The translations under genes were made by a program, and so were the position numbers. DNA of 64,000 nucleotides. Origin: a phage. Shown in pieces: positions 1,424-47,574 of the stretch. The first letter of the stretch is position 1. Every line of letters begins with the position of its first letter. Below the pieces are notes generated by a model, which had not been told where the DNA came from, did not search any database, and was given only the letters and a program-made list of their open reading frames with translations. Location of the stretch: the sequence record PZ495249.1. The stretch is one strand, 5' to 3'.

Positions 1424-1434
1424 GTAACCTCCTA

Positions 1435-2558: not shown

Positions 2559-2639
2559 GTTTTACCTCTTAGTTAGTTTAGGGTGGATCTTCCCATATGA
2601 CTTATTTTAACACATATAGCAAGAGTTTGTCAAGAGAAA

Positions 2640-2666: not shown

Positions 2667-2670
2667 ATCA

Positions 2671-4629: not shown

Positions 4630-4644
4630 GGGATTCCTCCGCTA

Positions 4645-4839: not shown

Positions 4840-4919
4840 TACTTTACAGAGAATAACTTCATACCATGTTAAGCTAATTGTTTGCGAGGCAATGTCAATT
4901 GCATGTTTAATGGCTGGAT

Positions 4920-5420: not shown

Positions 5421-5449
5421 AAAATAAAGGGCATTGCTGCCCTTTTATA

Positions 5450-5929: not shown

Positions 5930-5979
5930 AGTGGATCTCCTTTACTTGTGTATAAGCGGGGCTTTCACCCCGCCCTCGA

Positions 5980-7386: not shown

Positions 7387-7420
7387 TTATGCTCCTGTTA
7401 GAAACTTTATTCCAATGAAT

Positions 7421-8489: not shown

Positions 8490-8507
8490 AAACAGACTTA
8501 TTGCAAG

Positions 8508-8996
8508 TTATTTTTTCTTGCGACCACGCTTAACGTCTGACTCAATCGAGTTAATCAAGTGAGCAGTGTCGATAAGAATGTGAGTTGACATGTTGCCTCT
8601 GTCTTGACGAATCTTAATTGTCACAGGAGACAGCGGTTTATAACGTTGCAATGCAATTGCTTGCGCAATCCCTTCTCGTGTTGCCTTGGCAATAGGTTCG
8701 AATGCGCCCAATCCTTTACCTCTTAGCAGATAATCTCTGAACACGGATTGCCAGTGTTTAGGTATTTCTTTCGAAGCATGAAGCGCCCCGTCTGTTAAGA
8801 AGGGACGCGCAGGAACATTGTTGCTCTCGTTACCGAATTGTTGAATGGCAGCGATAGTAGGGATTGTGAGATCTGATTCAGGATGCATTTTCGGTTGAAG
8901 GAAACCTGCCTCTATTTCAATATAGTCCAGGGCTTCCATCTTGCGGAAATAATCTTCGAGAGACATATCATCGCCTTTAAGGATCTCACATTTCAT
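8508..8996 (-). CDS. head-tail joining protein, 162 aa
   Basis: ORF in the head-tail joining block. Confidence 0.35.
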   Translation of the reverse strand: MKCEILKGDDMSLEDYFRKMEALDYIEIEAGFLQPKMHPESDLTIPTIAAIQQFGNESNNVPARPFLTDGALHASKEIPKHWQSVFRDYLLRGKGLGAFEPIAKATREGIAQAIALQRYKPLSPVTIKIRQDRGNMSTHILIDTAHLINSIESDVKRGRKKK

Positions 8997-9544
8997 TATT
9001 TGTCTCTTCTGTAATAGCCTATGTTGCCATAATTACGGAGATAATTAATGTTACGTGTTTGTCTATCAACACTTGCAACCCCTCCGAGTCCGTTAACGGA
9101 ATCAGGATCACTGTTGACACGATCAATTTCACGAGCGCTAACGCCACCAACAATCACTTTACTCGTTACGCCACGTCCAGAAGCACAACCAGGAATCATC
9201 ATGTCACCATTGATATATCCATTGTAGATATCTTCCCAAGGTGATTTATATTCTGTTTGTCCGTTACTGAACACAACTTCAACTTGCACCTCTCCGACTT
9301 TTTCTTTGCGAGAGAGAGCACCACCAGATTGACTATTATGATTTAGTATATCGGTGTTCCACAGGTATTCAAGAACAGAGATTAAACTGTTCCACAGTAC
9401 AGCACATTTATTCGAGTCTTCATTCCCAAGAATATCAATCCAAGTTTGGATAATTGGGATTAGCACTTCATCCGGCAATACTTCCTGTGAAGGACTAAAT
9501 ACCAGGATACGAATCATAGGTGCGAGTTCAGTAGCAATAAGCAT
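8996..9544 (-). CDS. head-tail connector/adaptor protein, 182 aa
   Basis: ORF between capsid genes and tail genes; stop/start overlap with the next gene. Confidence 0.35.
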   Translation of the reverse strand: MLIATELAPMIRILVFSPSQEVLPDEVLIPIIQTWIDILGNEDSNKCAVLWNSLISVLEYLWNTDILNHNSQSGGALSRKEKVGEVQVEVVFSNGQTEYKSPWEDIYNGYINGDMMIPGCASGRGVTSKVIVGGVSAREIDRVNSDPDSVNGLGGVASVDRQTRNINYLRNYGNIGYYRRDK

Positions 9545-9554
9545 TACTCACTCC

Positions 9555-9914
9555 TTATTTTTTAAGGGATGTGCGTTGAGATCTTTTCTTAGCTGGAGTA
9601 TCTACGGCTTTAACTTCAATCTTTTCCGCAGGGGCTTGCTCGTCTAATTTGGTATAGTCTTCAAAGCTCACCAGGTAATAACCAACGTGTTCTTCGCTGC
9701 TGAATGGAAGCACTTTAAGACCAGTTTCTTCACGTAGACGCACAAGGAAGTGTACAAAGTTTCCACCAAGTGCTACTCTACCATCAGTTGTGTAGAAGGA
9801 CATTGGCGGCGCAACGCTCAGAGTCTTACCTGCATCGAGAGATGGGGCAAGAGAGGCGAAGTCCATGATCATTTCATGGTATGAAAAATAACGTTTTAGT
9901 TCAGGGCTTGACAT
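9555..9914 (-). CDS. head-associated protein, 119 aa
   Basis: ORF immediately downstream of the major capsid gene and its terminator. Confidence 0.35.
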   Translation of the reverse strand: MSSPELKRYFSYHEMIMDFASLAPSLDAGKTLSVAPPMSFYTTDGRVALGGNFVHFLVRLREETGLKVLPFSSEEHVGYYLVSFEDYTKLDEQAPAEKIEVKAVDTPAKKRSQRTSLKK

Positions 9915-9949
9915 TTGAGTTCTCCTCGTTTATATTCTTCTCATAACAA

Positions 9950-9982
9950 AAAAGCCCACCCGCAAGGGGCAGGCTTTTTAGA
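9950..9982 (-). terminator. intrinsic terminator after major capsid gene (looks bidirectional)
   Basis: GC-rich 8-bp hairpin (GCCCACCC...GGGGCAGGC) flanked by an A-run upstream and T-run downstream on the plus strand. Confidence 0.45.
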
Positions 9983-9993
9983 ATCCGTTAGGA

Positions 9994-10995
9994 TTAAGCA
10001 GTAGTCAGACGAACAACCAGTTCTGGGCGAGTGTTAACTGCCAGAAGAGAGAATTCAGACTGTAGCTGAACTGTACGGTGTTCTGATACCATGAAGGTAT
10101 ACAGTTCACGAGCAACAGTGTTCGCCAGTTCAGGTGTGTCAGCAGGAGCGTAGTGCGCCTGGAACATATCTGGGATACCCATTGGCAGCACGAATGCTTC
10201 ACCAGCAGGGATGTTTCCGTGGATATCTTCGATGTAAGTTACACCGTTCCATTCGAACACTTGAACGTCCATGTTGCCACTCAGACGGTCACGCAGCAGG
10301 TTTGGAGTACCTTGGAAATACTGGTACGCCTGACGCACGAACGGAGAGTTCACCAGAGAGGCGAAGAACTCGCGAGAGCACAGAGCGATGATACGAGTAG
10401 CGGTAGAACCGTCTTGTTTCTCGTCGATGATGTACGCACGAGCTTCCTGTTCTACAGTTGCCGCAGGGGAAACAGTAGTAGAAGTGAAGTCGATTGGTAC
10501 AACTTTCTGTGTTGCGTTCCATTCTGTGTACCAGTTGTACGCAGAGTTAGCTGCACCACCTGGTCCATTGTACGCGAAACCACGTACTGCATCAGCAAAG
10601 ATAGTTTCTTTGGTTTTGGCTACGTCGCGCATGATTTGAGTCATGTAGCGGTTAACAACTTCCGCTTCGGTACGAAGACTATCGTTGATACCAGCCATAG
10701 CGAAGCTACGGAAGGATTGGATATCCTGTGCCTTAATGTTCTTATCCAGAGGGAAGAACGGAATACGGAAGACTTTAACGCTTGGTGCGTCCATAGTCAG
10801 GAAGTTACGTTCACCACCACGTTCACGGGCAGGAATCAGACCATCAGCGTTTTTCTGTTTACCGATTTCGATAGCAGTAGTCGCGTGATAGTGAGTGTCG
10901 AACAGGCCAAGACTTGCGATCAGAGTATCAGGGGTGTCCTGTAACTCGATCATTGGGCTAAAGTCTACAACCTGGTCCAGAATAATAGCTGGCAT
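9994..10995 (-). CDS. major capsid protein, 333 aa
   Basis: Size and position (after decoration/scaffold genes, before a strong terminator) typical of a major capsid gene. Confidence 0.6.
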   Translation of the reverse strand: MPAIILDQVVDFSPMIELQDTPDTLIASLGLFDTHYHATTAIEIGKQKNADGLIPARERGGERNFLTMDAPSVKVFRIPFFPLDKNIKAQDIQSFRSFAMAGINDSLRTEAEVVNRYMTQIMRDVAKTKETIFADAVRGFAYNGPGGAANSAYNWYTEWNATQKVVPIDFTSTTVSPAATVEQEARAYIIDEKQDGSTATRIIALCSREFFASLVNSPFVRQAYQYFQGTPNLLRDRLSGNMDVQVFEWNGVTYIEDIHGNIPAGEAFVLPMGIPDMFQAHYAPADTPELANTVARELYTFMVSEHRTVQLQSEFSLLAVNTRPELVVRLTTA

Positions 10996-11016
10996 GTATT
11001 AATCTCCTATTAATAA

Positions 11017-11409
11017 TTAAGAAGTGAAAACGACTTTTTCAGTCAGTTTCAGATCGTGAGTTTCCAGAGCAGCTACACCAGCGTCGTCGATCAGATTACC
11101 ATTTTTGTAGTAAACTGCGAAACGGTTTAGAGTCAGGTCACGTACACCAACAACTGCGGTGAAAGTGTCACCCACAGCTACATCGTCGATACCGAACAGT
11201 GCATCAGTCCATAGAAGAACTTTAACAGCACCAGAGGCAGCGGTAGCTTCCGTGTTGTCGGCTTGCAGTACAGAACCAATTTTCATGGTTGCAGTTTTAA
11301 CCAGGTTTACTTCGCGAACGCAGTGTCCAAGGTCAGAACTGAATACTCCACCCAGAACAAGGTGTCCGAATTCCTGGCGGTAGTTAGATAATGAAATTCC
11401 AGTTGCCAT
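11017..11409 (-). CDS. putative head decoration protein, 130 aa
   Basis: Small ORF directly upstream of the major capsid gene; Gly/Ala/Val-rich. Confidence 0.4.
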   Translation of the reverse strand: MATGISLSNYRQEFGHLVLGGVFSSDLGHCVREVNLVKTATMKIGSVLQADNTEATAASGAVKVLLWTDALFGIDDVAVGDTFTAVVGVRDLTLNRFAVYYKNGNLIDDAGVAALETHDLKLTEKVVFTS

Positions 11410-11427
11410 TAATTAAATCTCCTGAGA

Positions 11428-12558
11428 TTATTTCTGGGCTTTAGATTTTTTAAGTTCAGCGGCTTTCTGACGAATCAGATCAGAGGCAGATTTAGCAACT
11501 TGTTCTTGGTTGTTAACATCAACACCAACTTCTTTGCCAAATTCTTTCTTCACTGCTTCAACTTCTTCGCGAGCTTTCTCAAATGCAACAACAATAGTTT
11601 CAGCGATATCTTTGTTTTCGATCAGGTATTTAACCAGCGCTTCTACTTTGTCTTCTGCTACGAAATCATAAGATTTGATTACGGTAGCGTATTCGTCTTC
11701 AACACGAGCCAGTTCAGCTTTACGCAGTTCTTCTGCTGCTGCCTGTGCCTTAGCGATTTCTTCCTGAGCAGCGGCTTCGGCTTCTGCTTTCGCTTCGGCT
11801 TTTGCTTTTGCAATTTCTTCTGCTACCTGAGCTTTAATTAGCTCTTGGATTTCCGCAGATTTCAGGATTTCGTCTTTGTCGATATTTTCCAAAGGGATAT
11901 CTCCTTTATTTATGTCGGTTGTGTTTGCAGGGGAATTTGTATTTCCTTCTGCTGGATTATCCTCTGCAATCACAGAGTTCTTATCGGCGCGAGCATCAGA
12001 TGCTTTCACCAGGTAATCTTTTACATGATCAAATTTAATAGCACCTTTAACAAGGTTGCCTAATGCATCGTCGATCAGGTTATCAAAGAAATCCAGAGAG
12101 ACTAAAACATCACCGTCAACTACTTGATAATCTGTTGTCTGCACTACCGGATTAGCCACATCACCAACTTCAACAAGAAGTCCATTCAGTGTAAACTCAG
12201 TAGAGAACATTCCGTAGTCGCTACAGAAAATTACGATACCATTATCAAAGTCGGCATCCACAACATATACCCAATCCCAACCTGATTCGTATTTCTCACG
12301 AACAGCTTCTTGCAGAAGTGACATTAGTTGGTTAAGGTATGATTTACGTAGTTCGGTAACATCTTCACCCATCTTTTCGAGAGCTTCTAATTTCTCAAGA
12401 TTGATTTCAGGGTTGTCACCAGATTTGAAAAGTAAGGGGGTATTAAACCCAGAAGCTGCACCGCCTTGGAAATCGAAGGTATATGCGATGTGCGCTCCGC
12501 ATGAGTCTTCCGTAGCTTTACTTGAAAAGTCTACGTCAGTTAAATAAGTATGTGCCAC
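11428..12558 (-). CDS. putative scaffolding (or protease-scaffold) protein, 376 aa
   Basis: Strongly charged Ala/Glu/Lys-rich coiled-coil C-terminus (AEEIAKAKAEAKAEAEAAAQEEIAKAQAAAEELRKAE); between portal and capsid genes. Confidence 0.4.
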   Translation of the reverse strand: MAHTYLTDVDFSSKATEDSCGAHIAYTFDFQGGAASGFNTPLLFKSGDNPEINLEKLEALEKMGEDVTELRKSYLNQLMSLLQEAVREKYESGWDWVYVVDADFDNGIVIFCSDYGMFSTEFTLNGLLVEVGDVANPVVQTTDYQVVDGDVLVSLDFFDNLIDDALGNLVKGAIKFDHVKDYLVKASDARADKNSVIAEDNPAEGNTNSPANTTDINKGDIPLENIDKDEILKSAEIQELIKAQVAEEIAKAKAEAKAEAEAAAQEEIAKAQAAAEELRKAELARVEDEYATVIKSYDFVAEDKVEALVKYLIENKDIAETIVVAFEKAREEVEAVKKEFGKEVGVDVNNQEQVAKSASDLIRQKAAELKKSKAQK

Positions 12559-12560
12559 GA

Positions 12561-13040
12561 TTAGTCCTTCTTGACTATTCTACCCATAGCGCCAATGCTC
12601 AAGCCTTTAAGAACTCCGTCCTTACGTGCTTGGTATAGCTCTGCGTCGTAGAATTGGATTTTAACGAGAGGTGTACCTTCAACAACGAGTTCGTCACCAA
12701 TATAACAATCAACTTCATTAACCCATGCTTTAACTGGTTTAAATTTGTCAGTGTTTTTCAAGTGACCAAGATTGCCACTTACGTTGGCAATGTTTGCGTT
12801 GAAGTTGTCAACCATCTTTCTGATCTCAAGGTCAGACATACGTTCACCGTGAAGGTCGTCGTATTCTGGTGGACAATACATCACTTCGATAACTTGCATT
12901 TGTTCTTCATCAAACTTATTGTGTTTGATTACTTGCGCAGGTGTATCTTCTGGTGTAGAATCTTGTTGAGATGTGGAATCCTTACCCATAGCTTTAAAGG
13001 TTTCGAATAGATTCCAAAGTGTGTCTTTATTCAGTTCCAT
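12561..13040 (-). CDS. head morphogenesis protein, 159 aa
   Basis: ORF between portal and scaffold-like gene. Confidence 0.35.
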   Translation of the reverse strand: MELNKDTLWNLFETFKAMGKDSTSQQDSTPEDTPAQVIKHNKFDEEQMQVIEVMYCPPEYDDLHGERMSDLEIRKMVDNFNANIANVSGNLGHLKNTDKFKPVKAWVNEVDCYIGDELVVEGTPLVKIQFYDAELYQARKDGVLKGLSIGAMGRIVKKD

Positions 13041-13135
13041 GAGGTTCCTCGTAAAAACAAATATCCCATAAATCTTAGTCTACAGGATATTCGCTTATTT
13101 GTCAATACCTAAATTAAAAATTTTTCAAATTATTT

Positions 13136-14704
13136 TTAATTCGATAAATTTGCTGCTGAGTTGTCGGTTGCTGATGGGCTTGTTGAAGTGCCGTTTCCGG
13201 CTCCTGCTGCGAGTCCATCCCCAGAGCGTGAGGTTTTATCCGGTAAGAACGTAGCTGAGAACTCAGCCCACTTCTCAGGGCTTGTCACAATATCATCAGG
13301 GATACGATAGTTGATTCCACACATTGCGTAGAACTGGTTCATAACTTCTGGTGTCACTGCGATAGCTCCGGCTGCTACCAGTTGCTGGATAGCTTTGGCA
13401 TTTACCTCGATATTAGGATCGCCAATGTCATCACTGACAAACTTAGGCATATCTTCATCAGATAAGAAAATACCGTTAAGGCGAAGCATCTGCGGAATTA
13501 ACTGCGTATTGATGGCTTCTACCACGATATCAACATCACGTTCAATAAAGTGTGATAGTAATGTTTGTTTGTTATCGGATAATGCAAAACTACCTGCATC
13601 TCCGTCACCCATAATCAGAACACCTGCACCGAAACGGTTAAAGATATCCAGCTTACGCTGTTTGATTAGGGCTTGTGTGTCAAACTGTTTACCTGTACCT
13701 TGAACACCCTGGAAAGCAAGATCATATTGACGCATTACCGTTCCTTCGTAAACGTCAGAAGGTAGCACCATGTATGACTGCTCACCTGCGTGTAGGTTGG
13801 CAATATTAGCCTGTAGCACACGTAGAGATTGTGCCTCATCACCTTCTGGGTTCAGAGATGCACGATTAAGAATGTCGCTTGGAACCATCAGCACTGGCAT
13901 ACCGCCAAGGTCTTTTGATACCCCAACAACTTCGTATTCTTGGATCAGAGATTTCTCACGCCATGATCTGTACACTGCTAACAGTGGACTCACACCGAGA
14001 GGGTTATTCTCTGTAATATTGCTCCCGACATAAAGCACCTTATCCATCGGGATTTCTTTACGACCAAGCAGAGATACGTTAGTGCCTGGTGTCACCATAG
14101 ATCCGGTGATATTCTGGTTCACCGTAAGAATTGTGCGACCATCAGCAGAATAAGTGAAAGGCTCTGATAGATCAATTGTATCCTGGGGTCTAAACGCCAA
14201 TTTAGTAATGCGATAGTAACCGAAATACGGACTCTTTGGATCTTCGTCAAGTTCAAATACTTTCTCCGCAAACGCGAAACCAAACTGCTTGTATGTCAGT
14301 AATGAACGAACATACTGGCGAAGTGGAGCGTTCATGTTACGCAGAGCGAAGTCAACAAATTTTGCAGCCTTTCTTGACTTAGCTGATTTAACGTTGTATT
14401 CTATTGTGAAATCAAAGAATGCTCTGTCTACAAAGATATAGGTAGCGTCAAGAGCAGTTGCTACGTCTGGGTCTTCGCCCATCTCTTTGTACGTGCGGAT
14501 ATTCTCTGGGAAGCGAGTTTCATATGGCTGCATGAAATTCGTAAAGGCTTTGATTGAATTAAGCCCGATAGTACCAATTTCAGGCGACAGGAGTAAACTC
14601 TTTTCCTGCTGTGCTGTCTTAGTCGGTGAAAGTGTGGCTTTATTCGTCGTACCTTTGTTCCAGTAATCCGATTTTTTAGTGTACTTACGTTTTTCCGTTG
14701 ACAC
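13136..14704 (-). CDS. putative portal protein, 522 aa
   Basis: About 520 aa ORF directly downstream of the large terminase. Confidence 0.55.
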   Translation of the reverse strand: MSTEKRKYTKKSDYWNKGTTNKATLSPTKTAQQEKSLLLSPEIGTIGLNSIKAFTNFMQPYETRFPENIRTYKEMGEDPDVATALDATYIFVDRAFFDFTIEYNVKSAKSRKAAKFVDFALRNMNAPLRQYVRSLLTYKQFGFAFAEKVFELDEDPKSPYFGYYRITKLAFRPQDTIDLSEPFTYSADGRTILTVNQNITGSMVTPGTNVSLLGRKEIPMDKVLYVGSNITENNPLGVSPLLAVYRSWREKSLIQEYEVVGVSKDLGGMPVLMVPSDILNRASLNPEGDEAQSLRVLQANIANLHAGEQSYMVLPSDVYEGTVMRQYDLAFQGVQGTGKQFDTQALIKQRKLDIFNRFGAGVLIMGDGDAGSFALSDNKQTLLSHFIERDVDIVVEAINTQLIPQMLRLNGIFLSDEDMPKFVSDDIGDPNIEVNAKAIQQLVAAGAIAVTPEVMNQFYAMCGINYRIPDDIVTSPEKWAEFSATFLPDKTSRSGDGLAAGAGNGTSTSPSATDNSAANLSN

Positions 14705-14803
14705 TCCAATCTCCTTAGATTGATGCTGGACAAATAAAACTACCCCAATAAAGGGGTAGACTCTAAAGTTACTTTAACATACTTTGACAACTTTTGTCAA
14801 GCT

Positions 14804-16897
14804 TTATCTGCGACGAGTAGACCAAGGCTGAGCGAAGGAAGCCCTTGAACTGTTTTGCAGTTTTCCGTATCCGGTGGTTGCTCCCATCGGTGTAGGAATG
14901 GCTACAGCTTTGAATACTTGCTCTTTTGACAATGTGTTGAAGCATGATGCCGCAGCATCGGGAATATCGTCTTTAAGCGTTGCGGTAGAACGTTCCCCGT
15001 TGAACGATTCGAGTTCTTTGTAAAAGTGATCCAAAGTCTCTTTGTTCGGGAATGATTCTTCAACGATGTAAACGAAACCATTCTGACATGCACTACTGAA
15101 CGGCATGAAACGCTGGAGCTTCTTCTTGTTACCAGGCATTGCGTCCGGCTTAACAATGAATCCCTCTGCGATCAATTTCTTCGCTGACTCGGTGTATTCA
15201 ATTAAACCTGCACCAGATGGATCTTTCGGTAACACTACCGTCACTTCATCACCATCAATTTTACATTGCTGGAGAATCAGATTATCACGATCACCTGGTA
15301 GGCGACGGAATCGACCAAAGATCTTGCTGTCTTTATCCTTAGCGTCATAATCATAATCACCAAAGATATAAATATTCCCGTCCGAGTCTTTCGCCATCTT
15401 AACAGATGTTGTATAGTCAGGGTAACGATAAGATTCAGTTGGAACAGAAACAGCCTTATCCCATGCTCGCATGTATTTCAGGTTGTTTGGCAGATCTGCA
15501 AACTTGATTACGTTCAGCCATTCGCGCTGGAAGAAACTCTCTTCTTGCGCACGAGCAAACCAGCAACCATCCAGAAGCTGTGCTCTCTTAACCGCAGTCT
15601 GAGATTTCAGAGCAGCAAGATATTTAGGGTTGAGGCGAATCAATTCAGGGTTATCGAAGATTGTACCACCGATGAACACGAAACTCTGTGGTTCAATGTC
15701 AACCATCTCTCCGGTGTTTGGGTTGATGATTTGACAGTTGTCAGGATACTTCTCTTTGAGTTCTTCTGCTGTCTCAGCAAATACTGGTTCATCTTGAACG
15801 ATGATGAAGTAAAGCTGCTTACCGCACATATCTTCACGAGGGAATCCCGCTTCATCCAGATATGGCAACACCCAATTCAATACCCAACTATCTGCATCAG
15901 GGTTACAGGTGCAAAGCATGAATGACGTTTCAGATTCAGAACGAAGACGACCAAGCAGGTATAGGAATTCATACTGTGTGAAGTGTGTCAATTCGTCGAA
16001 ACCAATCATAGAATACTGTGTACCCTGATGGTTAGTCTCTGCTGTTACGTTATCATTCTCTAAGTGGTCAAACTTGAGCGTACCACCTTTCGTTGCTCTG
16101 AATTCCATCTCCATTGCCTGTTCACGAACGTGCGGGCGTAGTGGAGAATATAGTTTCTTAGCCTCAGAGAACAAGCCCCCTGGTTTACGGTGAGCAGTGG
16201 TATTCTTACGGAATAAGATTCCCCCGAAGAGAGGATCTTTGTATGCGTATTTAAGCGCCTTTAAAAGCAGTAGGCGAGACTTACCGCTATTGCCAGTAAC
16301 GAAGATGTGATCGCCACGTCTAAAGACAACATAGCTACTTGGAGTTTCAAAACAGTATTTCTTATCATCGGTTGTCATTACCTCGTGAATTTTCAGGTGA
16401 GTGCTTGGCTTACCTTGAATGTTAAACGGTACACGCTTTCCAAACGGGTTTTCAATATATCCTCTGAGAGGATGCCCTGCTTGTTGTAACGCGATCAGAT
16501 CCCCAACAAGGATCTCGAAATGCTTCTTGGATTTCTTCTTCTTGTAGAATACAAATCGGTGTTCCATACTCAATTCTTGGAATACACCAACACCATTCGT
16601 AATACGATGTAAGTTGTCACTTGTTTCATGTTCTACGAAATACGGTGAAGTTAGTTCAAGACGTTTATTACGAGGATTGTATTGATAAATATCCTCTCCT
16701 GAATATCCGCTGATTGGCTTCCAGCCATCCACTGTCAGATATTCTGTTTCTGCACTGACACATCCCGCAGCCCCACCGTAAATCATTAGCTCCGGCATTA
16801 AATCCATCGCCAGTGTTTGTTTACCTGGTTGTGCTTTTACTTCAATGTCAGCATCTGCCAACGACATATTGGCCTTAGCTTTTGGTGTCCTTGCCAC
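14804..16897 (-). CDS. terminase large subunit, intein-containing precursor, 697 aa
   Basis: Removing residues 46-203 gives GGAAG-SGKS (Walker A GxxxxGKS); Walker-B-like IGFDE downstream; position ahead of portal. Confidence 0.65.
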   Translation of the reverse strand: MARTPKAKANMSLADADIEVKAQPGKQTLAMDLMPELMIYGGAAGCVSAETEYLTVDGWKPISGYSGEDIYQYNPRNKRLELTSPYFVEHETSDNLHRITNGVGVFQELSMEHRFVFYKKKKSKKHFEILVGDLIALQQAGHPLRGYIENPFGKRVPFNIQGKPSTHLKIHEVMTTDDKKYCFETPSSYVVFRRGDHIFVTGNSGKSRLLLLKALKYAYKDPLFGGILFRKNTTAHRKPGGLFSEAKKLYSPLRPHVREQAMEMEFRATKGGTLKFDHLENDNVTAETNHQGTQYSMIGFDELTHFTQYEFLYLLGRLRSESETSFMLCTCNPDADSWVLNWVLPYLDEAGFPREDMCGKQLYFIIVQDEPVFAETAEELKEKYPDNCQIINPNTGEMVDIEPQSFVFIGGTIFDNPELIRLNPKYLAALKSQTAVKRAQLLDGCWFARAQEESFFQREWLNVIKFADLPNNLKYMRAWDKAVSVPTESYRYPDYTTSVKMAKDSDGNIYIFGDYDYDAKDKDSKIFGRFRRLPGDRDNLILQQCKIDGDEVTVVLPKDPSGAGLIEYTESAKKLIAEGFIVKPDAMPGNKKKLQRFMPFSSACQNGFVYIVEESFPNKETLDHFYKELESFNGERSTATLKDDIPDAAASCFNTLSKEQVFKAVAIPTPMGATTGYGKLQNSSRASFAQPWSTRRR
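16289..16762 (-). mobile_element. mini-intein (158 aa) inserted in the terminase P-loop
   Basis: Insert begins with Cys (CVSAETEYLTVDGWKPI) and ends with Asn followed by Ser (HIFVTGN|SGKS), splitting the Walker A motif. Confidence 0.55.
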
Positions 16898-16905
16898 TTA
16901 TCCTC

Positions 16906-17235
16906 CTACTTGGAAATGATACCTTTCTCTTGCAATGTTCTGATATAATTCTGCAAGGATGTTAGTTTAGCTCTATCTTTACTCCACAACACATTGTTTG
17001 AGGCTTGGTTATCAACCACCTCAGAACGGCTCACGCCGCGCTCTATCTGTTTTGTAGTGTAAGGAATAGGGTGAGATGGGTTATCCATGTCTGTAGCGTC
17101 TGGAGCCTTAATCTGCTCCGTTGCTACCGCTTTGCATTGATCAATTAGAATCGGTTGGGAAGCTTTCGTTGATGATGCGCAGCCCGTCATCGCGAGGGGC
17201 AAAGCAAGACATAGAGCCAGCAGAAGTTTTCGCAT
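16906..17235 (-). CDS. putative o-spanin (outer-membrane lipoprotein), 110 aa
   Basis: Internal start MRKLLLALCLALPLAMTGC is a lipoprotein signal with lipobox; gene overlaps the i-spanin 3' end in another frame. Confidence 0.5.
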   Translation of the reverse strand: MRKLLLALCLALPLAMTGCASSTKASQPILIDQCKAVATEQIKAPDATDMDNPSHPIPYTTKQIERGVSRSEVVDNQASNNVLWSKDRAKLTSLQNYIRTLQEKGIISK

Positions 17236-17584
17236 AGTCAGTCTTCTCTTGGTTAGTCTTCCTTTCTTTCTTATCAAGTTGCTCACGAAGATCTTTGTTC
17301 GTTGCTGAAAGAGAGGTGATTTGTTTATTAAGATCAGTTCTGTCCTTGTCGGCTTGTGCCTGGAGAACATCAAACTGTTGTTTAGCTTTTGCCTGATTAT
17401 TCTTATCAACTTGCACTTGATATGCAATACCAGCACCATACCCTTCTTGGTATATGCTGTCTCGGATACTTGCTGCACATAGATATAGAACAATCACAGA
17501 TGCAATGATGAGAATAGCACTTCTCACCCACTTATTCTGAAATATCTTCGCCAGTAGGCTCAGGAATGTCGTCATAATCTGCAA
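17141..17584 (-). CDS. putative i-spanin, 147 aa
   Basis: N-terminal transmembrane helix (SAILIIASVIVLYLCAA) followed by a charged coiled-coil periplasmic region; overlapped by the o-spanin gene. Confidence 0.5.
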   Translation of the reverse strand: MQIMTTFLSLLAKIFQNKWVRSAILIIASVIVLYLCAASIRDSIYQEGYGAGIAYQVQVDKNNQAKAKQQFDVLQAQADKDRTDLNKQITSLSATNKDLREQLDKKERKTNQEKTDYAKTSAGSMSCFAPRDDGLRIINESFPTDSN

Positions 17585-18449: not shown

Positions 18450-18524
18450 TGGTTGTAGCAGATGGAATCGAACCATCATCAATCGGTTATCAGCCGAACG
18501 TATTAGCCGTTATACTATGCCACA
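18450..18524 (-). tRNA. tRNA-Ile (anticodon GAU)
   Basis: Encoded CCA, 7-bp acceptor, T-arm GATGG-AATCGAA-CCATC, anticodon loop reads CUGAUAA. Confidence 0.55.
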
Positions 18525-18530
18525 ATTGTT

Positions 18531-18613
18531 TGGCATCCAGGTGAGGAATCTAACCCCTTGAAACTGGTTTTGGAGGCCAGCAACGGGAACACCCATTTTT
18601 AATCTACCCAGAT
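18531..18613 (-). tRNA. degenerate tRNA-like element or pseudo-tRNA
   Basis: Preceded by the ATTGTTTGG boundary motif; acceptor stem possible with two G.U pairs; T-loop degenerate (AATCTAA); no clean anticodon arm. Confidence 0.2.
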
Positions 18614-18619
18614 ATTGTT

Positions 18620-18695
18620 TGGAGGCGGGAGCCGGAATCGAACCGACCTGCGACAAGCATATGAAACTTGTGAGTTCCCAGAACTCTATCCCGCA
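18620..18695 (-). tRNA. tRNA-Met (anticodon CAU)
   Basis: CCA encoded; T-arm GCCGG-AATCGAA-CCGAC; anticodon loop UUCAUAU; position 1-72 appears mismatched. Confidence 0.5.
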
Positions 18696-18699
18696 CTTT

Positions 18700-18775
18700 T
18701 GGTTGATAGTAAGAGAATCAAACTCTTCTCACAACGCCGTATGAAAGCGTCCGAAACATCAGCTTCACACTATCA
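18700..18775 (-). tRNA. tRNA with CAU anticodon (Met, fMet or Ile-lysidine)
   Basis: Perfect acceptor (TGATAGT/ACTATCA), T-arm AAGAG-AATCAAA-CTCTT, anticodon loop UUCAUAC. Confidence 0.5.
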
Positions 18776-18776
18776 A

Positions 18777-19040
18777 TTAAACACGATGGATTATTTTAAC
18801 TGTCTCACCCTTATCATTCATAAGGTAGGCACTTTCATTCCTATGAATAAAGTCCGTAGAGTTGCCACTAATGACACTTGCAATAACACCATCCAGCTTA
18901 TCATAACCTTCAAAATGATATTGGATGTGTATATTTCCATCAAGTTCTATATAATGTTCTTCTTCATCTACCTCGTAAGGTACTGAGTCATAAATTTTTG
19001 TCCCTTTGGGGAACTTGCGAACTATTTTCAATGTATACAT
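18777..19040 (-). CDS. hypothetical protein, 87 aa, inside the tRNA array
   Basis: ORF with good SD (GAAGGAAATACT-ATG); no recognisable motif. Confidence 0.4.
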   Translation of the reverse strand: MYTLKIVRKFPKGTKIYDSVPYEVDEEEHYIELDGNIHIQYHFEGYDKLDGVIASVISGNSTDFIHRNESAYLMNDKGETVKIIHRV

Positions 19041-19124
19041 AGTATTTCCTTCGTAGTGTTTATATTAGTAATATGCCGTCCCAAGCCGAACGGCGATTAG
19101 TGTTTTAGCTTGGCATTGATAATA

Positions 19125-19199
19125 TGGTACTTCCTGGAGGAATCGAACCACCGACGCTCACCTTGTAAGGATGACGTTCTACCATTGAACTAAGGAAGT
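19125..19199 (-). tRNA. tRNA-Val (anticodon UAC)
   Basis: CCA encoded; perfect acceptor ACTTCCT/AGGAAGT; T-loop AATCGAA; anticodon loop CUUACAA. Confidence 0.55.
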
Positions 19200-19272
19200 A
19201 TGGCGGGGATTTTCCGCACTGTCTATCGCGATATGGACTCGGACAGTGTTCTCGGCTAAATACCCCATTGTT

Positions 19273-19359
19273 TGGTACATCAGGTCAGACTCGAACTGAC
19301 ACGCCCTCACGAGCACTGGAACCTAAATCCAGGGCGTCTACCAATTTCGCCACTGATGC
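19273..19359 (-). tRNA. tRNA-Leu (anticodon UAG), type II
   Basis: 87 nt with long variable arm; T-arm GTCAG-ACTCGAA-CTGAC; anticodon stem CTGGA/TCCAG; loop UUUAGGU. Confidence 0.55.
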
Positions 19360-19367
19360 ATTTAATT

Positions 19368-19444
19368 TGGTGGAGAAGTGGAGAATCGAACTCCATACTC
19401 GAAGGTGCAAACCTCGTGTTTTAACCGAATATTACTACATCCCC
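19368..19444 (-). tRNA. tRNA-Ala (anticodon UGC)
   Basis: CCA encoded; T-arm TGGAG-AATCGAA-CTCCA; anticodon loop UUUGCAC. Confidence 0.45.
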
Positions 19445-19506
19445 AATTTGTATACACTACACAGAAGATAGGTCTGATTGCCTCGGCAGTTGCCGTAGTG
19501 TTTATC

Positions 19507-25244: not shown

Positions 25245-26942
25245 CTATTTCACCTCAATCAGATGATTCATAACCTCTTTATCCAGACGCGCACGAATAT
25301 CGTTGAAATCTTCATCTCGACCGTTCACCTGCGGAATCAGCACATCTCCGTTACGGAAGATTGGCTGCAACAGGTTATCTTCATCGTTGATCTCGTTGAA
25401 GGAGATGTTGTCAACCTGACGGATAACACCATCGTCACCACGAACAACTTTGATGAAGCCTTTCGCAGAGCGTTTACCTGGATCAGTTTTCGGCTCTTTG
25501 CTCACCATGATTTCGTAATCGTCAATGAAGCAACCAGTAGCTTTCACAGCAATACCGAAGGTATCACGAGTGTTGAACTGGTAGGTGAAGCTACCAACAC
25601 CGAATACGATGTTTGAGGAAGCAAAACCGTTACGTTTCAGACGAGACAGAATTTCAATCTCACGCTGAACAGTGATTGAATCACCGTAAATCATGCCGAT
25701 ATGAGTATCCAGCACTTTGTAACCTTTGTTGTTCACTTCACCACCGAAGATTTCCCACAGGATCTGGATAGAACCTACCGCCTCATGGCGTGGAATCTCA
25801 CGGTCTTCGTCGATCAGCCAGTAAATATTCTCTTCTTTCAGGAACGCAACTTCTGTCAGGATATGACGAGAAGTGTTAATGAAGTGTTCACGATTCTCGA
25901 ACTCTTCAATATGATAACCAGCAACAACATGTACCGGATTACCTGAGTCAGGGCGAATAACCAGGCGACCATCACGAGCCATAATCTCTTCTTTCAGTTC
26001 GCTCAGGATGCGAGTCAGTACAGTCCAGTAATCGTAGGAGTCAGCAACGTAAGAGCAGAAACCTTTAGGAACCACTTTGGTAATAAAGTGCAGCAGGAAT
26101 TCTTTCTCTGCAAGATAACGGAGGCCATCAACATCACCTGCGAGGTGAGGGAAATGCTCTTCGAGATCTTTTACGATACGACTGATGTTTGTAGTTGCCA
26201 CAGAGTGCTCAGACGCAGGGATACTACCAGCAACGAAATCATCTTCATCAATACCGTAGTATTCGTAAACCGCGTCGATTGCCAGAATGTTATCTGTACC
26301 AGTGAACGCTGCCAGGTGAGCGATACCGCTCTTATAGCCGTCTTCAATACAAGATAAACCGCGCAAACTGAAATCGTGACACTGGAAATTAACGTGATCC
26401 ACATTGTCACAAGTTGCCAGTGCATATGACATTGCCACACGCTTGTACTGGAACGCAGCAGTTGCGTTGGTGATCGCTTTCCAGCTTTCGGTTGACATTA
26501 CGGTTTCAACGTAGTTAGTCACCCAGAAGAATTTCTCAATCGTATTGTGAATGGTATAAACCGGAACACCAATCGGAGACAGAATACCTTCTGGCAGAGC
26601 ACGAATTTCCAGAGGCAGGTAGCCTAAATCGTGCAGTTCACCCCAACATTCAGCGCTTGGCGCAGATTCACCGAGTGATTTTTTAGCCATGCGATCAAAA
26701 CGCTTAACGGCTGCTTCTCGCTTCATCTTGAAGAATTTCTTCCACATGCCTACCATTGAGTCCATCACCATACGGCGGAAGCCGATGACGATAACACCGC
26801 GAGCATTTTTATCTGCGTAATGCGCAAAGTTCTTGTCATTACGTGGAGTCAGGTTAGAGAAGATCAGTTTAGTGTTTGGATTGTACATTGGCTTGTGACC
26901 AGGTTTGTACCAATCGGCAGCAGACGGTGCATAAATTTCCAT
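25245..26942 (-). CDS. nicotinamide phosphoribosyltransferase family protein (NAMPT/NadV-like; candidate Namat of an NAD+ reconstitution pathway), 565 aa
   Basis: Length and motifs typical of NAMPT-family enzymes (GSIPASEHS, IRPDSGNP, GMIYGDSI, FGVGSFTYQ); adjacent to a PRPP-synthetase-like gene. Confidence 0.7.
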   Translation of the reverse strand: MEIYAPSAADWYKPGHKPMYNPNTKLIFSNLTPRNDKNFAHYADKNARGVIVIGFRRMVMDSMVGMWKKFFKMKREAAVKRFDRMAKKSLGESAPSAECWGELHDLGYLPLEIRALPEGILSPIGVPVYTIHNTIEKFFWVTNYVETVMSTESWKAITNATAAFQYKRVAMSYALATCDNVDHVNFQCHDFSLRGLSCIEDGYKSGIAHLAAFTGTDNILAIDAVYEYYGIDEDDFVAGSIPASEHSVATTNISRIVKDLEEHFPHLAGDVDGLRYLAEKEFLLHFITKVVPKGFCSYVADSYDYWTVLTRILSELKEEIMARDGRLVIRPDSGNPVHVVAGYHIEEFENREHFINTSRHILTEVAFLKEENIYWLIDEDREIPRHEAVGSIQILWEIFGGEVNNKGYKVLDTHIGMIYGDSITVQREIEILSRLKRNGFASSNIVFGVGSFTYQFNTRDTFGIAVKATGCFIDDYEIMVSKEPKTDPGKRSAKGFIKVVRGDDGVIRQVDNISFNEINDEDNLLQPIFRNGDVLIPQVNGRDEDFNDIRARLDKEVMNHLIEVK

Positions 26943-27011
26943 TTGTTTCTCCTTTCTCTTGTTTGTTTCGATGAGGAGAAGATTAAGTTATCCTCTCCAC
27001 AAAGTCAACAC

Positions 27012-27911
27012 TTATTTGTAATTTTTACGAAGATTGCCGTTCAGAATGAAATTCTGGAGCGCTTGTTGGTTTAACACCAGTTTACCTGTCTCGTCAACAT
27101 TATTCTCCCACACATTGAAAGAATGGATGCAATCAAAGTGCTCATTTAGTTCTTTCATACCCTTAGAGAAGATACCGTGGGTAACGAACAGTTCAATCTT
27201 ACCAGCGTTACGTTCACGCAATACTTTGGCAAGCTCAATGAAAGTACGACCACCATCGCAGATATCATCCACGATCATCAAATTCTTACCGCAGAAGTCC
27301 TCGACGTTGATGTTGGTCTTGACAATATCTCCGGTCTTCGTATCACGGATTTTCTCTGCACAGTGTACAATGAGTTGCATTGGTTTAGCCAGTTTGAAGA
27401 TTTTCTTCAAGGCTCCACCGTCTGGACTAACCAGATCAAACTCTTCCATACGGAGTTTCCAGTTAATCGCGAACATTGCAATCTCTTCTTGTGGGATAAC
27501 AAACAAGTTATGGATTACAGCCGGAGTTACATCACTGTGCGGATCAGCAACAGTCACACGGTCAAAGTTAAGGTTGTTAAGTGCTTCTGCAAACGCACCG
27601 ATACCATTGGCTTCACCTGGTTCACACACTCGGTCTTGTCGAGCATATGGCACATAGAGCATAACAAGCTCTGTTGTGTGAGGGATGAATTTAAGAATGT
27701 TATCAATTGCATTCTTAGTCATCAGCAACACCATGAAGTCATTACCTGATCTTACTTCGTGATGGATAATCACACGAGAACCTGGTTCAGTTAATGCAAT
27801 CATCGTGTCTGCATCAACACGTACATGTTCTTCTCCGCCAGAGAAGGTGAATGTTTTGATTGGTACAGGATAAACTTCACTGTTGTGTGGGTGCATGATA
27901 TCAATCTTCAT
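27012..27911 (-). CDS. ribose-phosphate pyrophosphokinase family protein (Prs-like; candidate Adps), about 300 aa
   Basis: PRPP-binding-loop-like LMIVDDICDGGRTF; start placed at MKIDIM because the longer track ORF overlaps the upstream gene. Confidence 0.65.
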   Translation of the reverse strand: MKIDIMHPHNSEVYPVPIKTFTFSGGEEHVRVDADTMIALTEPGSRVIIHHEVRSGNDFMVLLMTKNAIDNILKFIPHTTELVMLYVPYARQDRVCEPGEANGIGAFAEALNNLNFDRVTVADPHSDVTPAVIHNLFVIPQEEIAMFAINWKLRMEEFDLVSPDGGALKKIFKLAKPMQLIVHCAEKIRDTKTGDIVKTNINVEDFCGKNLMIVDDICDGGRTFIELAKVLRERNAGKIELFVTHGIFSKGMKELNEHFDCIHSFNVWENNVDETGKLVLNQQALQNFILNGNLRKNYK

Positions 27912-28113
27912 TGTCTTCCTCCTCTTCTTCAATTTCTTCAATTTCACTTAAACGATCAAGAATTGTCTGAGCCTGGTCCCAGAGAGCATCATAGGCTCTA
28001 CGCTCACGAGGAGATAGCTGTGAAGGTCTGAAATCATCTTGGTACATCTTATCAATAATATCTTGCATATCGTTCGATGTATTCTCGAACATACAATAAC
28101 TCATGTTTGACAT
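27901..28113 (-). CDS. small acidic protein, 70 aa
   Basis: ORF upstream of the Prs-like gene; C-terminal EIEEIEEEEEDNED. Confidence 0.35.
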   Translation of the reverse strand: MSNMSYCMFENTSNDMQDIIDKMYQDDFRPSQLSPRERRAYDALWDQAQTILDRLSEIEEIEEEEEDNED

Positions 28114-28129
28114 ATCTTTCTCCTTGGTT

Positions 28130-28380
28130 AGTTGATGGACAGGAGTATAGATATGTAAGATCAGTAAGTCAACTACTTTCTTAGTATGAATTAATTAAGG
28201 AATAGATTGACTCAGGTATGTTAGATCTGATACATTGACAGACATGAAAGATATCTATACAGACAACTCTACTGTCTAAGAGATCTAAGTGAAACAGAAT
28301 GAGAGAATCTCCCCTCGCTTCGCTCGGCAAACTTCGTGTTTAGGGTAGCATGTTTCAAAACAAAAGTCAATACCTCAAAG
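28130..28380. promoter_or_regulatory. divergent control region between minus-strand and plus-strand gene blocks
   Basis: About 250-bp AT-rich ORF-free spacer with several TTGAC(A/T) hexamers (e.g. TTGACTCAGG, TTGACAGACATG) and TATA-like boxes on both strands. Confidence 0.35.
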
Positions 28381-28387
28381 GAGAAAA

Positions 28388-28528
28388 ATGAAAATTAATT
28401 TAGAACAAGTAAAAGACCTCACACCTAAGTATAAGAGAGGCGGTGCATCACGCCGTAGAACGCTGCGTGAGGGCATTGACAAGCCACGGTTAGTGGTTTA
28501 TCATCCAGAGAAAGAAAACGGCTCATAA
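28388..28528 (+). CDS. small basic ORF, 46 aa, first gene of the plus-strand block
   Basis: SD CAAAGGAGAAAA-ATG; MKINLEQVKDLTPKYKRGGASRRRTLREG... Confidence 0.3.
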   Translation: MKINLEQVKDLTPKYKRGGASRRRTLREGIDKPRLVVYHPEKENGS

Positions 28529-28546
28529 CGCGATACAGGAGGTCTG

Positions 28547-29809: not shown

Positions 29810-29961
29810 AACTACGTATCACTGATATCCGAGCGTTTGACAACTATCACATAGCCTTGTCAATTCTTGGCGCACATAATGTAGGTGATGTGTTGGAGTA
29901 TAACGAACATATGCCTATCTTCGATATCTTGATCGAAAAAGGTTGGGTGCAAAAGGTATGA
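29806..29961 (+). CDS. hypothetical protein, 51 aa
   Basis: SD GGGAGGAAGAAGAA-ATG. Confidence 0.35.
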   Translation: MKLRITDIRAFDNYHIALSILGAHNVGDVLEYNEHMPIFDILIEKGWVQKV

Positions 29962-30302
29962 GAATCTGGCTTGATGATTTACGTGATCCAAGAGATTACG
30001 GATACCCTGATGCCATCTGGGTTAAAAACTCCATTGATTTCAAGCTGCAACTTATTGATTGTCTGCTTATGGAAGATGATGGTGATAGCCTGGTAGCGAT
30101 CCACTTTGACAACGATATTGGAGAAAAGACCGAAGGTTATCACCTCTTCTTAAAAGTGGAGGAGATCATTCATGCTGGAAAATTCAAGGGCTTGAAAGAA
30201 ATCTTTGTCCATACGTCGAATTCAGGGGCGGCTCAGAAATTTATGCTTGCAAAAGACGGGTTAGCTCGTTATGATGTGAACATAATTCGTAAATACTATT
30301 GA
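29958..30302 (+). CDS. hypothetical protein, 114 aa
   Basis: ATG overlapping the upstream stop (ATGA). Confidence 0.4.
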   Translation: MRIWLDDLRDPRDYGYPDAIWVKNSIDFKLQLIDCLLMEDDGDSLVAIHFDNDIGEKTEGYHLFLKVEEIIHAGKFKGLKEIFVHTSNSGAAQKFMLAKDGLARYDVNIIRKYY

Positions 30303-30313: not shown

Positions 30314-30481
30314 ATGTGGAGCACACCATCAAGAGGCCAACTGCCTAACCAAAACGAAGTTGTTGTGGCTGTCAGTCCAGAGGGTAAGGAATTGGAGATG
30401 TACCGAATTGGCAATCTGTGGTTCCCTGTCGGTGACACATGTTATGTCTACTGGACACCTGTAATGTGGAGGAATAAGTAA
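30314..30481 (+). CDS. hypothetical protein, 55 aa
   Basis: SD GAGGAGAGATAAC-ATG. Confidence 0.35.
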   Translation: MWSTPSRGQLPNQNEVVVAVSPEGKELEMYRIGNLWFPVGDTCYVYWTPVMWRNK

Positions 30482-31044
30482 TGTTTGTGACGAGTGATCG
30501 CCACTTCTGGCATGATAAAGTGCTGGATTTTCAGGCGCATACCCGCCCATTCTCTGATTTAGAAGAGATGCATGAGGCATATATTAAAGAGTGGAACGCC
30601 TGTGCAACCAAACCTGGGGTGAAAATGTTCCACTTGGGAGATTTCAGTTTTGGTCTTCAAGACCAGACAGAAGAAATCTGCAAGCGTTTGCAGGGTGATA
30701 TCACCTTCATCGTTGGCAACCATGACCGCAGCTATACCCGTTCCGTAATGGAAAAGTATGGGCGTGTCGTCTGGTATGATGAAGTGAAATATCAGAAACA
30801 CTTCTTTGTATTGAGCCACTACCCTATGCTCACCTGGAACAAATCCCACAAGGGGAGTATCATGTTACATGGTCACGAGCATGGCAACTTGGTGCATCTC
30901 GAAGAGGAGCGTGGTAAAACTATGGATGTGGGCGTAGACGTTCACGGTCGCTTCTTACATTTCGATGAAATCATTGAGATTATGAAAGACCGTCCTATGC
31001 GCATGGATCATCGTAAATTTAGAGGGGAGGATATTATCCGATGA
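30481..31044 (+). CDS. calcineurin-like metallophosphoesterase, 187 aa
   Basis: Motifs SDRHFWH, GDFSFG, GNHD, HGHEHG. Confidence 0.55.
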   Translation: MFVTSDRHFWHDKVLDFQAHTRPFSDLEEMHEAYIKEWNACATKPGVKMFHLGDFSFGLQDQTEEICKRLQGDITFIVGNHDRSYTRSVMEKYGRVVWYDEVKYQKHFFVLSHYPMLTWNKSHKGSIMLHGHEHGNLVHLEEERGKTMDVGVDVHGRFLHFDEIIEIMKDRPMRMDHRKFRGEDIIR

Positions 31045-47566: not shown

Positions 47567-47574
47567 GGAGGAGC

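Follow-up and report, generated by a model that had tools for sequence, protein, structure and literature searches.

A probable NARP1 gene pair, encoding Adps and Namat, in a phage related to Stephanstirmvirinae

Results

A conserved, co-oriented gene pair

The 64,000-nucleotide stretch of phage DNA analyzed here (sequence record PZ495249.1; hereafter, the window) carries two adjacent genes of the ribose-phosphate pyrophosphokinase (Prs) and nicotinamide phosphoribosyltransferase (NAMPT) families, which we evaluate as members of the NAD+ reconstitution pathway NARP1, that is, as genes for an ADP-ribose pyrophosphate synthetase (Adps, Prs-like) and a nicotinamide ADP-ribose transferase (Namat, NAMPT-like). 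In the list of open reading frames (ORFs), namat lies downstream of adps on the same strand, with 69 nt between them (Table 1). A first-pass annotation had described a 565-aa NAMPT-family gene beside a co-oriented Prs-family gene of about 300 aa, and the ORF list, Pfam, and PHROG concur: the 565-aa protein matches Pfam NAPRTase (E value of 1.9e-35) and PHROG 448, “nicotinamide phosphoribosyl transferase” (4.3e-181), and the Prs-like protein matches Pribosyl_synth (5.1e-09), Pribosyltran (1.1e-07), and PHROG 619, “ribose-phosphate pyrophosphokinase” (9.3e-84). PHROG 12872 (547 positions) matches both proteins. The longest form of the Prs-like ORF (27012 to 27947, minus strand) opens with a GTG at 27947, and the end that had been assigned to the pair, 27911, is the ATG of a 299-aa form preceded at the proper distance by GAGGAGG; independent gene callers also picked this start, for an identical protein, in public metagenome assemblies.

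Neither reading frame is disrupted. When compared with its counterpart in Klebsiella phage phi1_175008, namat has an omega of 0.10, indicating purifying selection; for adps, synonymous sites are saturated in the same comparison. The pair recurs in identical order across relatives, and in the original NARP1 study (Osterman et al. 2024) a Namat homologue adjoins 97% of Adps-clade genes, so the adjacency is not due to chance.

The NAMPT-like protein

Namat is distinguished structurally by a “selectivity clamp,” which in the SPbetaL1 enzyme binds the adenine of ADP-ribose pyrophosphate (ADPR-PP) and consists of a helix and a variable loop (PMC12774641). The helix follows the consensus GS-X-phi-X-phi-X-phi-TRD, in which the first and third X are stacking aromatics (F392 and Y396 in SPbetaL1), and the third residue of the loop is Arg, Lys, or Tyr, with the fourth residue stacking if the third is Lys or Tyr (PMC12774641). 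We aligned the full-length window protein with the Namat proteins of SPbetaL1, Bas63, muut, and phi1_175008, the Nampt of the KVP40-like phage nt-1 (NARP2 type), and human NAMPT (sequence checked as identical to PDB accession number 2GVG); the clamp helix was read from full-length loci, as the sequences in Table S2 of Osterman et al. stop at about 400 residues.

The window protein contains a clamp helix, GSFTYQFNTRD (G450 to D460), that places F452 and F456 at both adenine-stacking positions. The corresponding helices are GSFTYQYNTRD in SPbetaL1 and GSYTYQYMTRD in Bas63, versus GGGLLQQLDRD in the Nampt of nt-1 and GGGLLQKLTRD in human NAMPT. In the clamp loop, around K37-N38-F39, K37 occupies the position of SPbetaL1 R40 and Bas63 K42. 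The catalytic core is also conserved, with D10, Y12, F191, R194, D217, H246, R330, D332, and G420-D421 corresponding to D13′, Y15′, F189, R192, D215, the catalytic His, R306, D308, and G360-D361 of SPbetaL1 Namat; mutation of R306, the equivalent of R330, abolishes NARP1.

In a phmmer search of the PDB, SPbetaL1 Namat (accession numbers 9W5X and 9W5W) ranks first (E value of 1.5e-114, 387 bits), versus about 180 bits for human and rodent NAMPT entries (about 1e-51 for human). Pairwise identities follow the same order: 45% to SPbetaL1 and 44% to Bas63 Namat versus 32% to the NARP2-type Nampt of nt-1 and 31% to human NAMPT. By clamp helix, core residues, and ranking, the 565-aa protein thus appears to be a Namat and not a Nampt. 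Insertions at about 253 to 276 (about 24 aa) and 343 to 385 (about 45 aa) make it some 74 residues longer than the Namat of SPbetaL1; both are common to muut and phi1_175008 and occur in variant form in the 593-aa Namat of Bas63, an enzyme that is functional in vivo.

The same search returned PDB entries 9KE8 and 9KEO, labeled “nicotinamide phosphoribosyltransferase,” at 339 bits, well above canonical NAMPT; their sequence at the clamp helix reads GAQTYQRNTRD.

The Prs-like protein

To place the Prs-like protein, we constructed a neighbor-joining tree of 29 sequences, comprising the window protein, 21 sequences from Table S1 of Osterman et al. (20 Adps associated with a Namat and a phage homologue that has none nearby), and seven canonical Prs. 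The Table S1 sample includes the validated enzymes of SPbetaL1, Bas63, and FADO and one bacterial Adps paralogue; the canonical set includes E. coli Prs and the own Prs of the bacterium bearing that paralogue, and the tree separates these two correctly. Bootstrap support is 100% both for the split of the seven canonical Prs from the remaining 22 sequences, which include the window protein, and for the sister relationship of that protein to the phi92/muut type.

We then mapped onto the protein, by alignment, the structural determinants of Adps as described from the ICP1 Adps structures (PMC13586617). The catalytic lysine of the beta-hairpin, K187, aligns with SPbetaL1 K162 and ICP1 K185, whose replacement by alanine inactivates the respective enzymes (PMC13586617 for ICP1); this lysine is conserved in Prs as well and is, therefore, necessary but nondiscriminating. 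The acceptor groove, likewise shared with Prs, is kept in full (R91, H125, D164, D215, D216, and D219, equivalent to R87, H121, D161, D212, D213, and D216 of ICP1), as is the Phe contributed by the neighboring protomer (F23, equivalent to ICP1 F18′). More telling is the segment formed by the pyrophosphate (PP) loop and the lid, C218-D219-G220-G221-R222-T223-F224 (C215 to S220 and F221 in ICP1): the ATP-lid position is Phe in all 22 Adps-clade sequences, including the window protein (F224), and I, L, or V in each of the seven Prs, which makes it the most informative structural determinant. The first PP-loop residue is C, T, S, or A in Adps (Cys in the window protein) and Ile in every Prs.

The protein also falls short of the NCBIfam cutoffs for Prs, scoring 104 against a cutoff of 113 for TIGR01251, 94.6 against 296 for PRK00934, and 80.8 against 297 for PRK01259, and lies far below those of the remaining Prs models. 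Matches to Prs hidden Markov models break off near position 260 of the 309-position profile, in keeping with the loss of the C-terminal alpha11-alpha12 module of Prs that has been reported for Adps, and identity to E. coli Prs is 20%. Clade, residues, and thresholds together point to an Adps. A search for global signature columns (at least 85% conserved within each group) returned a single position separating Adps from Prs, V128 versus Prs Q134; because the Adps clade is so diverse, simple global signatures are unhelpful and structure-guided positions are more useful.

Relatives of the pair

The phage is a roughly 150-kb myovirus related to Stephanstirmvirinae, and the window encodes 23 tRNA genes, ribonucleotide reductase, ThyX, DNA ligase, PhoH, and lysozyme. 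Exact copies of both proteins are absent from NCBI and were found solely in metagenome contigs of JGI and Logan, the longest of 153,725 bp; the phage is thus known from metagenomes and not as a sequenced isolate, but its lineage is known. The nearest DNA records are the Klebsiella phages phi1_175008, KP2025, KP13-26, and FKP3 (Stephanstirmvirinae), with about 83% identity over 69 to 78% of the region. Like the window, these phages have the order orf70-adps-namat with an 11-nt overlap (orf70, a 70-aa ORF, is treated below), and their proteins are 86% (Namat), 83% (orf70), and only 65% (Adps) identical to those of the window. In place of the 69-nt spacer of the window, they carry a 67-aa ORF between adps and namat or, in FKP3, an HNH endonuclease. 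The intervening ORF (67 to 69 aa, MKVKVQYVGPG...) is conserved in relatives (L002:11031-11234, L022:4604-4807, and L024:4604-4813), and its 67-aa form has no PHROG match.

Stephanstirmvirinae coliphages (phi92, muut, ECGD1, ESCO8, and three BASEL phages) have the same two genes in the same order, and muut, ECGD1, and ESCO8 are the closest protein relatives in the phage collection, with Adps 65% and Namat 73% identical to the window proteins. In the phi92/muut type, the clamp helix and both Namat insertions are shared with the window, the clamp loop likewise reads NDKNFAHYAD and the PP loop DDICDGGRTF, and there is again a tRNA array downstream and a divergent early region upstream, although in muut, unlike in the window, no orf70 precedes adps. 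The phages muut, ECGD1, and phi92 and the BASEL phages EmilieFrey, JohannJBalmer, and PaulScherrer are listed in Tables S1 and S2 of Osterman et al. 2024, where their Prs/Adps are recorded as having a Namat within ten genes and their Namat proteins are labeled “Adps-associated”; in the window, the Namat homologue is the gene immediately next to adps. Since relatives that are 65 to 73% identical appear in these tables, the window pair belongs to a subclade already counted among the 859 phage genomes cataloged as NARP1 carriers in the original study.

Table S1 of the same study also contains an entry from Shigella phage Ag3 (FJ373894_00125) in which one ORF joins the N-terminal part of an Adps to the C-terminal part of a Namat; this could be a natural fusion or the product of a deletion or frameshift.

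NARP1 has been characterized experimentally in SPbetaL1 (enzymology and structures 9W5X/9W5W), Bas63 and FADO (deletion phenotypes), and ICP1 (Adps structures). The window shares with these systems the Adps lysine, acceptor site, PP loop, and lid Phe, the Namat core and clamp helix, and the order of adps followed by namat, at identities of 27 to 36% for Adps and 44 to 45% for Namat; its clamp loop is longer than that of SPbetaL1 and lacks the Trp used by Bas63. Canonical Prs (E. coli Prs and human PRPS1) and human NAMPT have the same folds and the same catalytic chemistry as the window pair, with pyrophosphoryl transfer from ATP followed by replacement of the pyrophosphate with nicotinamide, but Prs has aliphatic residues in place of the lid Phe and PP-loop Cys, and its C-terminal region is unmatched in the window protein.

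Accessory and alternative-pathway genes

Several phage pathways extend or parallel NARP1. NARP1-AP adds a Macro-domain ADPR-1″-phosphatase (Adpp), and RyDEP adds an RyR-domain glycosidase acting on cyclic ADP-ribose, both around a core pair in common with the window. NARP2 (KVP40 type) serves the same purpose with a Nampt that is homologous to Namat but uses phosphoribosyl pyrophosphate (PRPP), proceeds through nicotinamide mononucleotide (NMN), requires an Nmnat, and bears the motif GGGLLQ.L.RD; NARP3 (PnuC plus NadR) also restores NAD+ during infection, with unrelated proteins. We scanned with Pfam orf70, the three ORFs downstream of namat, six plus-strand neighbors, and 40 further plus-strand ORFs of at least 100 aa, a set that leaves aside minus-strand ORFs at 404 to 17493 and ORFs of less than 100 aa outside the flanks (23.9 to 31.0 kb). 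Among these scanned ORFs, which include the two genes on either side of the pair, there is no Macro (PF14519, PF01661, and PF20016) or RyR (PF02026) domain, nor any CTP_transf_like/Nmnat, NadR, PnuC, or Nudix domain, and, therefore, within the scanned ORFs the module is a plain two-enzyme NARP1 without extension. Because cleavage by aRES yields ADPR-1″-phosphate and no Adpp was found in this set, the phage would, by analogy, be sensitive to aRES-type defense.

A metallophosphatase gene at 30481 to 31044 was considered as the “phage phosphatase” that extends NARP1 and was rejected: that enzyme is a Macro-domain protein, whereas the local gene belongs to PHROG 547 and lies on the opposite strand.

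Discussion

Reading of the pair as NARP1

Gene anatomy, family and clade membership, the conserved functional residues, and the clamp-helix motif are all read directly from the DNA. On this basis, we regard the pair as very probably a NARP1 module (Adps plus Namat) that rebuilds NAD+ from ADP-ribose and nicotinamide as an antidefense measure. The first-pass annotation had proposed NARP1 as well, and the Namat clamp helix, the Adps clade and determinants, the missed Prs cutoffs, the structure ranking, and the cataloged relatives bear it out. It had further stated that the sequence cannot separate NARP1 from a plain Prs-plus-NAMPT route, which no longer applies, as the rules from two structural studies of 2026 (PMC12774641 and PMC13586617) now separate the two; the alignment it had proposed, against Adps/Namat and canonical Prs/NAMPT, puts both window proteins on the Adps/Namat side.

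The substrates, products, and antidefense role of the pair would follow those of SPbetaL1, Bas63, FADO, and ICP1. Both the SPbetaL1 and ICP1 Adps have been shown to pyrophosphorylate ADP-ribose and not ribose-5-phosphate, and SPbetaL1 Namat alone has been shown to prefer ADPR-PP over PRPP and to make NAD+ directly. By analogy, a host SIR2-, TIR-, or SEFIR-type defense would cleave NAD+ to ADP-ribose and nicotinamide, whereupon Adps would bind ADP-ribose in its interdomain groove and ATP under the remodeled PP loop and Phe lid, and the beta,gamma-pyrophosphate would be moved from ATP, with the help of K187, onto O1″ of the terminal ribose, so that ADP-ribose becomes ADPR-PP and ATP becomes AMP. 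In the Namat dimer, nicotinamide would lie between F191 and Y12′ and the adenine of ADPR-PP would be clamped by F452, F456, and a loop residue; NAD+ would then arise directly as pyrophosphate is exchanged for nicotinamide, and the whole route would consume one ATP. Namat would favor ADPR-PP over PRPP because the helix (GSFTYQFNTRD) and loop clamp would stack on the adenine, and the pathway as a whole would counter NAD+ depletion by SIR2-, TIR-, and SEFIR-based systems.

Several observations weigh against this assignment. The biochemically characterized Adps are only 27 to 36% identical to that of the window, and NARP1 is attributed to the phi92/Klebsiella-phage clade entirely through homology. 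Of the ICP1 residues that contact the adenine of ADP-ribose (F18′, R87, and F92), the first two have conserved equivalents (F23 and R91), but F92 corresponds to C96; in addition, ICP1 F223 corresponds to E226. Both of these differing positions are variable in the Adps clade, even among validated members, with C, M, E, or F at the first. The tail past the conserved His is 54 residues long, compared with 38 to 51 in characterized Adps and 65 to 66 in Prs. In Namat, the fourth clamp-loop residue, N38, is nonaromatic (W43 in Bas63) and is followed by F39, which is perhaps the stacking residue. Finally, the view is limited to 64 kb of a genome of about 154 kb, with about 90 kb lying outside the window.

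Competing explanations

The same genes could in principle serve plain salvage, with the Prs-like protein producing PRPP from ribose-5-phosphate, the NAMPT-like protein converting it to NMN, and host NadR or PncC-dependent routes completing NAD+. Both proteins do match generic families, the 565-aa protein passing the NCBIfam PRK09198 cutoff (446 against 405), and since Namat enzymes can still form some NMN from PRPP in vitro, salvage may make a minor contribution. As an account of the pair, however, we consider salvage very unlikely: the NAMPT-like protein has the Namat clamp helix in place of the GGG motif of Nampt; the Prs-like protein has the Adps placement at 100% bootstrap, the lid Phe, the PP-loop Cys, and subthreshold Prs scores; the control reaction for canonical Prs (ribose-5-phosphate plus ATP, Fig. 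2D) yielded nothing with SPbetaL1 Adps; and Bas63 still countered defense in a pncC nadR double mutant.

A NARP2-type arrangement, in which the NAMPT-like protein would convert PRPP to NMN for adenylation by a phage Nmnat encoded at another locus, would find room for a distant Nmnat in the part of the genome beyond the window. Even so, its probability is extremely low: the clamp helix is of the Namat type, identity to the NARP2-type Nampt is well below that to Namat, the scanned window ORFs yielded no CTP_transf_like or NadR match, and NARP2 Nampts occur in phages without Adps, both pathways being found together in no phage of the original study. Equally improbable is a pair that has decayed or been repurposed and has lost its action on NAD metabolites, using, for example, another nucleotide-sugar acceptor. 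Such a history might be read from the adenine-contact positions that differ from ICP1 (F92 to C and F223 to E) and from the Namat insertions relative to SPbetaL1, but those positions vary over the whole Adps clade, the insertions are common to muut and phi1_175008 and have a variant in the in vivo-functional Namat of Bas63, neither enzyme has lost a catalytic residue, and the omega of Namat is that of a protein under constraint.

The NARP1 pathway is already well described, and the window pair is a further, slightly rearranged copy that adds no new biology. NARP1 is one of the main phage escapes from NAD+-depleting immunity (Thoeris type I, DSR1/2, SIR2-HerA, SEFIR, Kongming, and SPARSA), and its correct recognition helps predict which defenses a phage overcomes, for instance, among therapeutic phages against Klebsiella or Escherichia. 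Assignment of the pair to NARP1 also corrects a routine misannotation of such genes as “ribose-phosphate pyrophosphokinase” and “nicotinamide phosphoribosyltransferase,” and the case shows that the call can be made from sequence, by the GS-aromatic clamp helix of Namat and the lid Phe and PP-loop Cys of Adps.

Organization of the surrounding unit

The pair forms part of a leftward unit that begins with orf70 in a divergent region (Table 1), where GC skew sign and coding strand both switch at about 28.1 to 28.5 kb. The stop codon of orf70 overlaps the ATG of adps by 11 nt (ATGAAGATTGA), which couples the two genes translationally. Gene order, the short spacer, and the ribosome-binding sites fit a single operon, and the start of the unit within a divergent early-type promoter region fits early expression. 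A scan for promoters found 10 sites against 9.5 expected in shuffled sequences, that is, no excess, and the sigma-70-like candidate in front of orf70 is suggestive by position only. The hairpin in the adps-namat spacer was rejected as a terminator (z = −1.66, not significant; no T-run). The three co-oriented ORFs downstream of namat probably belong to this transcription unit and show no tie to NAD metabolism.

Table 1. Features of the adps-namat unit and its immediate surroundings
Feature	Coordinates	Strand	Evidence or remarks
namat (Nampt-like, nicotinamide ADP-ribose transferase), 565 aa	25245..26942	-	Pfam, PHROG, PDB ranking, alignment
adps (Prs-like, ADP-ribose pyrophosphate synthetase), 299 aa	27012..27911	-	Pfam, NCBIfam, PHROG, neighbor-joining tree, residue mapping
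adps-namat spacer, 69 nt	26943..27011	-	namat ribosome-binding site AAGGAG and 9-bp hairpin
orf70, 70-aa acidic protein, first gene of leftward unit	27901..28113	-	AAGGAG ribosome-binding site
Sigma-70-like promoter candidate, TTGACT-17-TATACT (10/12)	28144..28172	-	About 30 nt upstream of orf70, in divergent intergenic region 28114-28546
72-aa Cys-rich ORF	24948-25166	-	Downstream of namat, co-oriented
89-aa ORF	24571-24840	-	Downstream of namat, co-oriented
218-aa Laminin_G_3 ORF	23897-24553	-	Downstream of namat, co-oriented
Terminator-like hairpin	23865-23844	-	After the three downstream ORFs, before the tRNA array

orf70

The coupling of orf70 to adps, with the same overlap, is also present in phi1_175008 and in two metagenomic lineages (L022 and L024; orf70 at 75% or 66% identity). 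The gene is under purifying selection (omega of 0.18 against phi1_175008), and synonymous variation among codons places the constraint at the level of the protein. It matches PHROG 26791 and PHROG 8760, both of unknown function, and its family, which has no Pfam domain, numbers only 27 clusters in a collection of 5.8 billion proteins. An alignment of 26 members shows a near-invariant N terminus, M-x-N-M-S-Y-C-M-F-E-N-T-S-N-D, after which come a divergent helix and an acidic tail. The AlphaFold2 model is a two-helix hairpin (predicted local distance difference test score of 88), for which fold searches of the PDB and BFVD returned nothing beyond its own homologue, and a literature search found no match to the motif.

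A tblastn search recovered orf70 homologues in 26 phage records, five of them from Klebsiella phages, in which the homologue is coupled to adps, and 21 from jumbo phages of about 350 kb, with 71 to 77% identity except in EJP2 (49%). In Serratia phage BF, Salmonella phage 7t3, and Xanthomonas phage XbC2, the homologue starts at or overlaps the stop codon of an ADP-ribosylglycohydrolase gene, and in BF, NARP3-like NadR-like and PnuC genes lie about 3.5 kb beyond it. All members of at least 64% identity whose neighborhoods were examined stand either immediately before adps (in phages of about 140 to 154 kb) or immediately behind an ADP-ribosylglycohydrolase gene (in the jumbo phages of about 350 kb), with the exception of GAP32. 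A family-wide partnership with ADP-ribose enzymes is unsupported, as members of 41 to 60% identity have small early genes, and no NAD genes, as neighbors and as GAP32 has no upstream glycohydrolase. We consider it unlikely that orf70 is a new accessory factor of NAD+/ADP-ribose counterdefense, such as a regulator or partner of ADP-ribose enzymes or an inhibitor of a host NADase. We regard its link to ADP-ribose enzymes as a lead and not a finding, and the gene is the only open thread of an otherwise known pathway.

Other features of the window

Two plus-strand genes with conserved counterparts in relatives diverge from the NARP1 unit, one (29943 to 30302) for a cREC_REC “cyclic-phosphate processing receiver domain” protein (PF20274, 4.9e-10), which is annotated as “nudix hydrolase” in those relatives, and, after it, the phosphoesterase gene at 30481 to 31044 (PHROG 547, with a weak Metallophos match). 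The presence of an RNA ligase near these genes in muut suggests an RNA repair-type module; a tie to NARP1 is conceivable because ADPR-PP decays to a cyclic phosphate.

The 218-aa Laminin_G_3/concanavalin-like ORF downstream of namat, which ends the NARP1 transcription unit, aligns with internal stretches of very large PHROG families associated with the virion; its counterpart in KP2025 is annotated as “baseplate wedge protein.” Directly downstream of the NARP1 unit and on the same strand is the array of 23 tRNA genes (18450 to 23838), in which the tRNA at 22066 to 22140 (minus strand) has a CTA anticodon; it is labeled tRNA-Pyl by ARAGORN and could be an amber suppressor.

Elsewhere, the window encodes a complete dTDP-L-rhamnose pathway on the plus strand, consisting of an rmlB-like dehydratase (46571 to 47566), rmlA (47575 to 48501), rmlC (48450 to 49019), and rmlD (49016 to 49852), with Pfam E values of 1e-72 to 1e-81 for the genes of this cluster (46571 to 49852). 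A serine recombinase gene (54006 to 54668, plus strand; Resolvase N-terminal domain, 1.3e-20) is present although the genome otherwise resembles that of a virulent myovirus.

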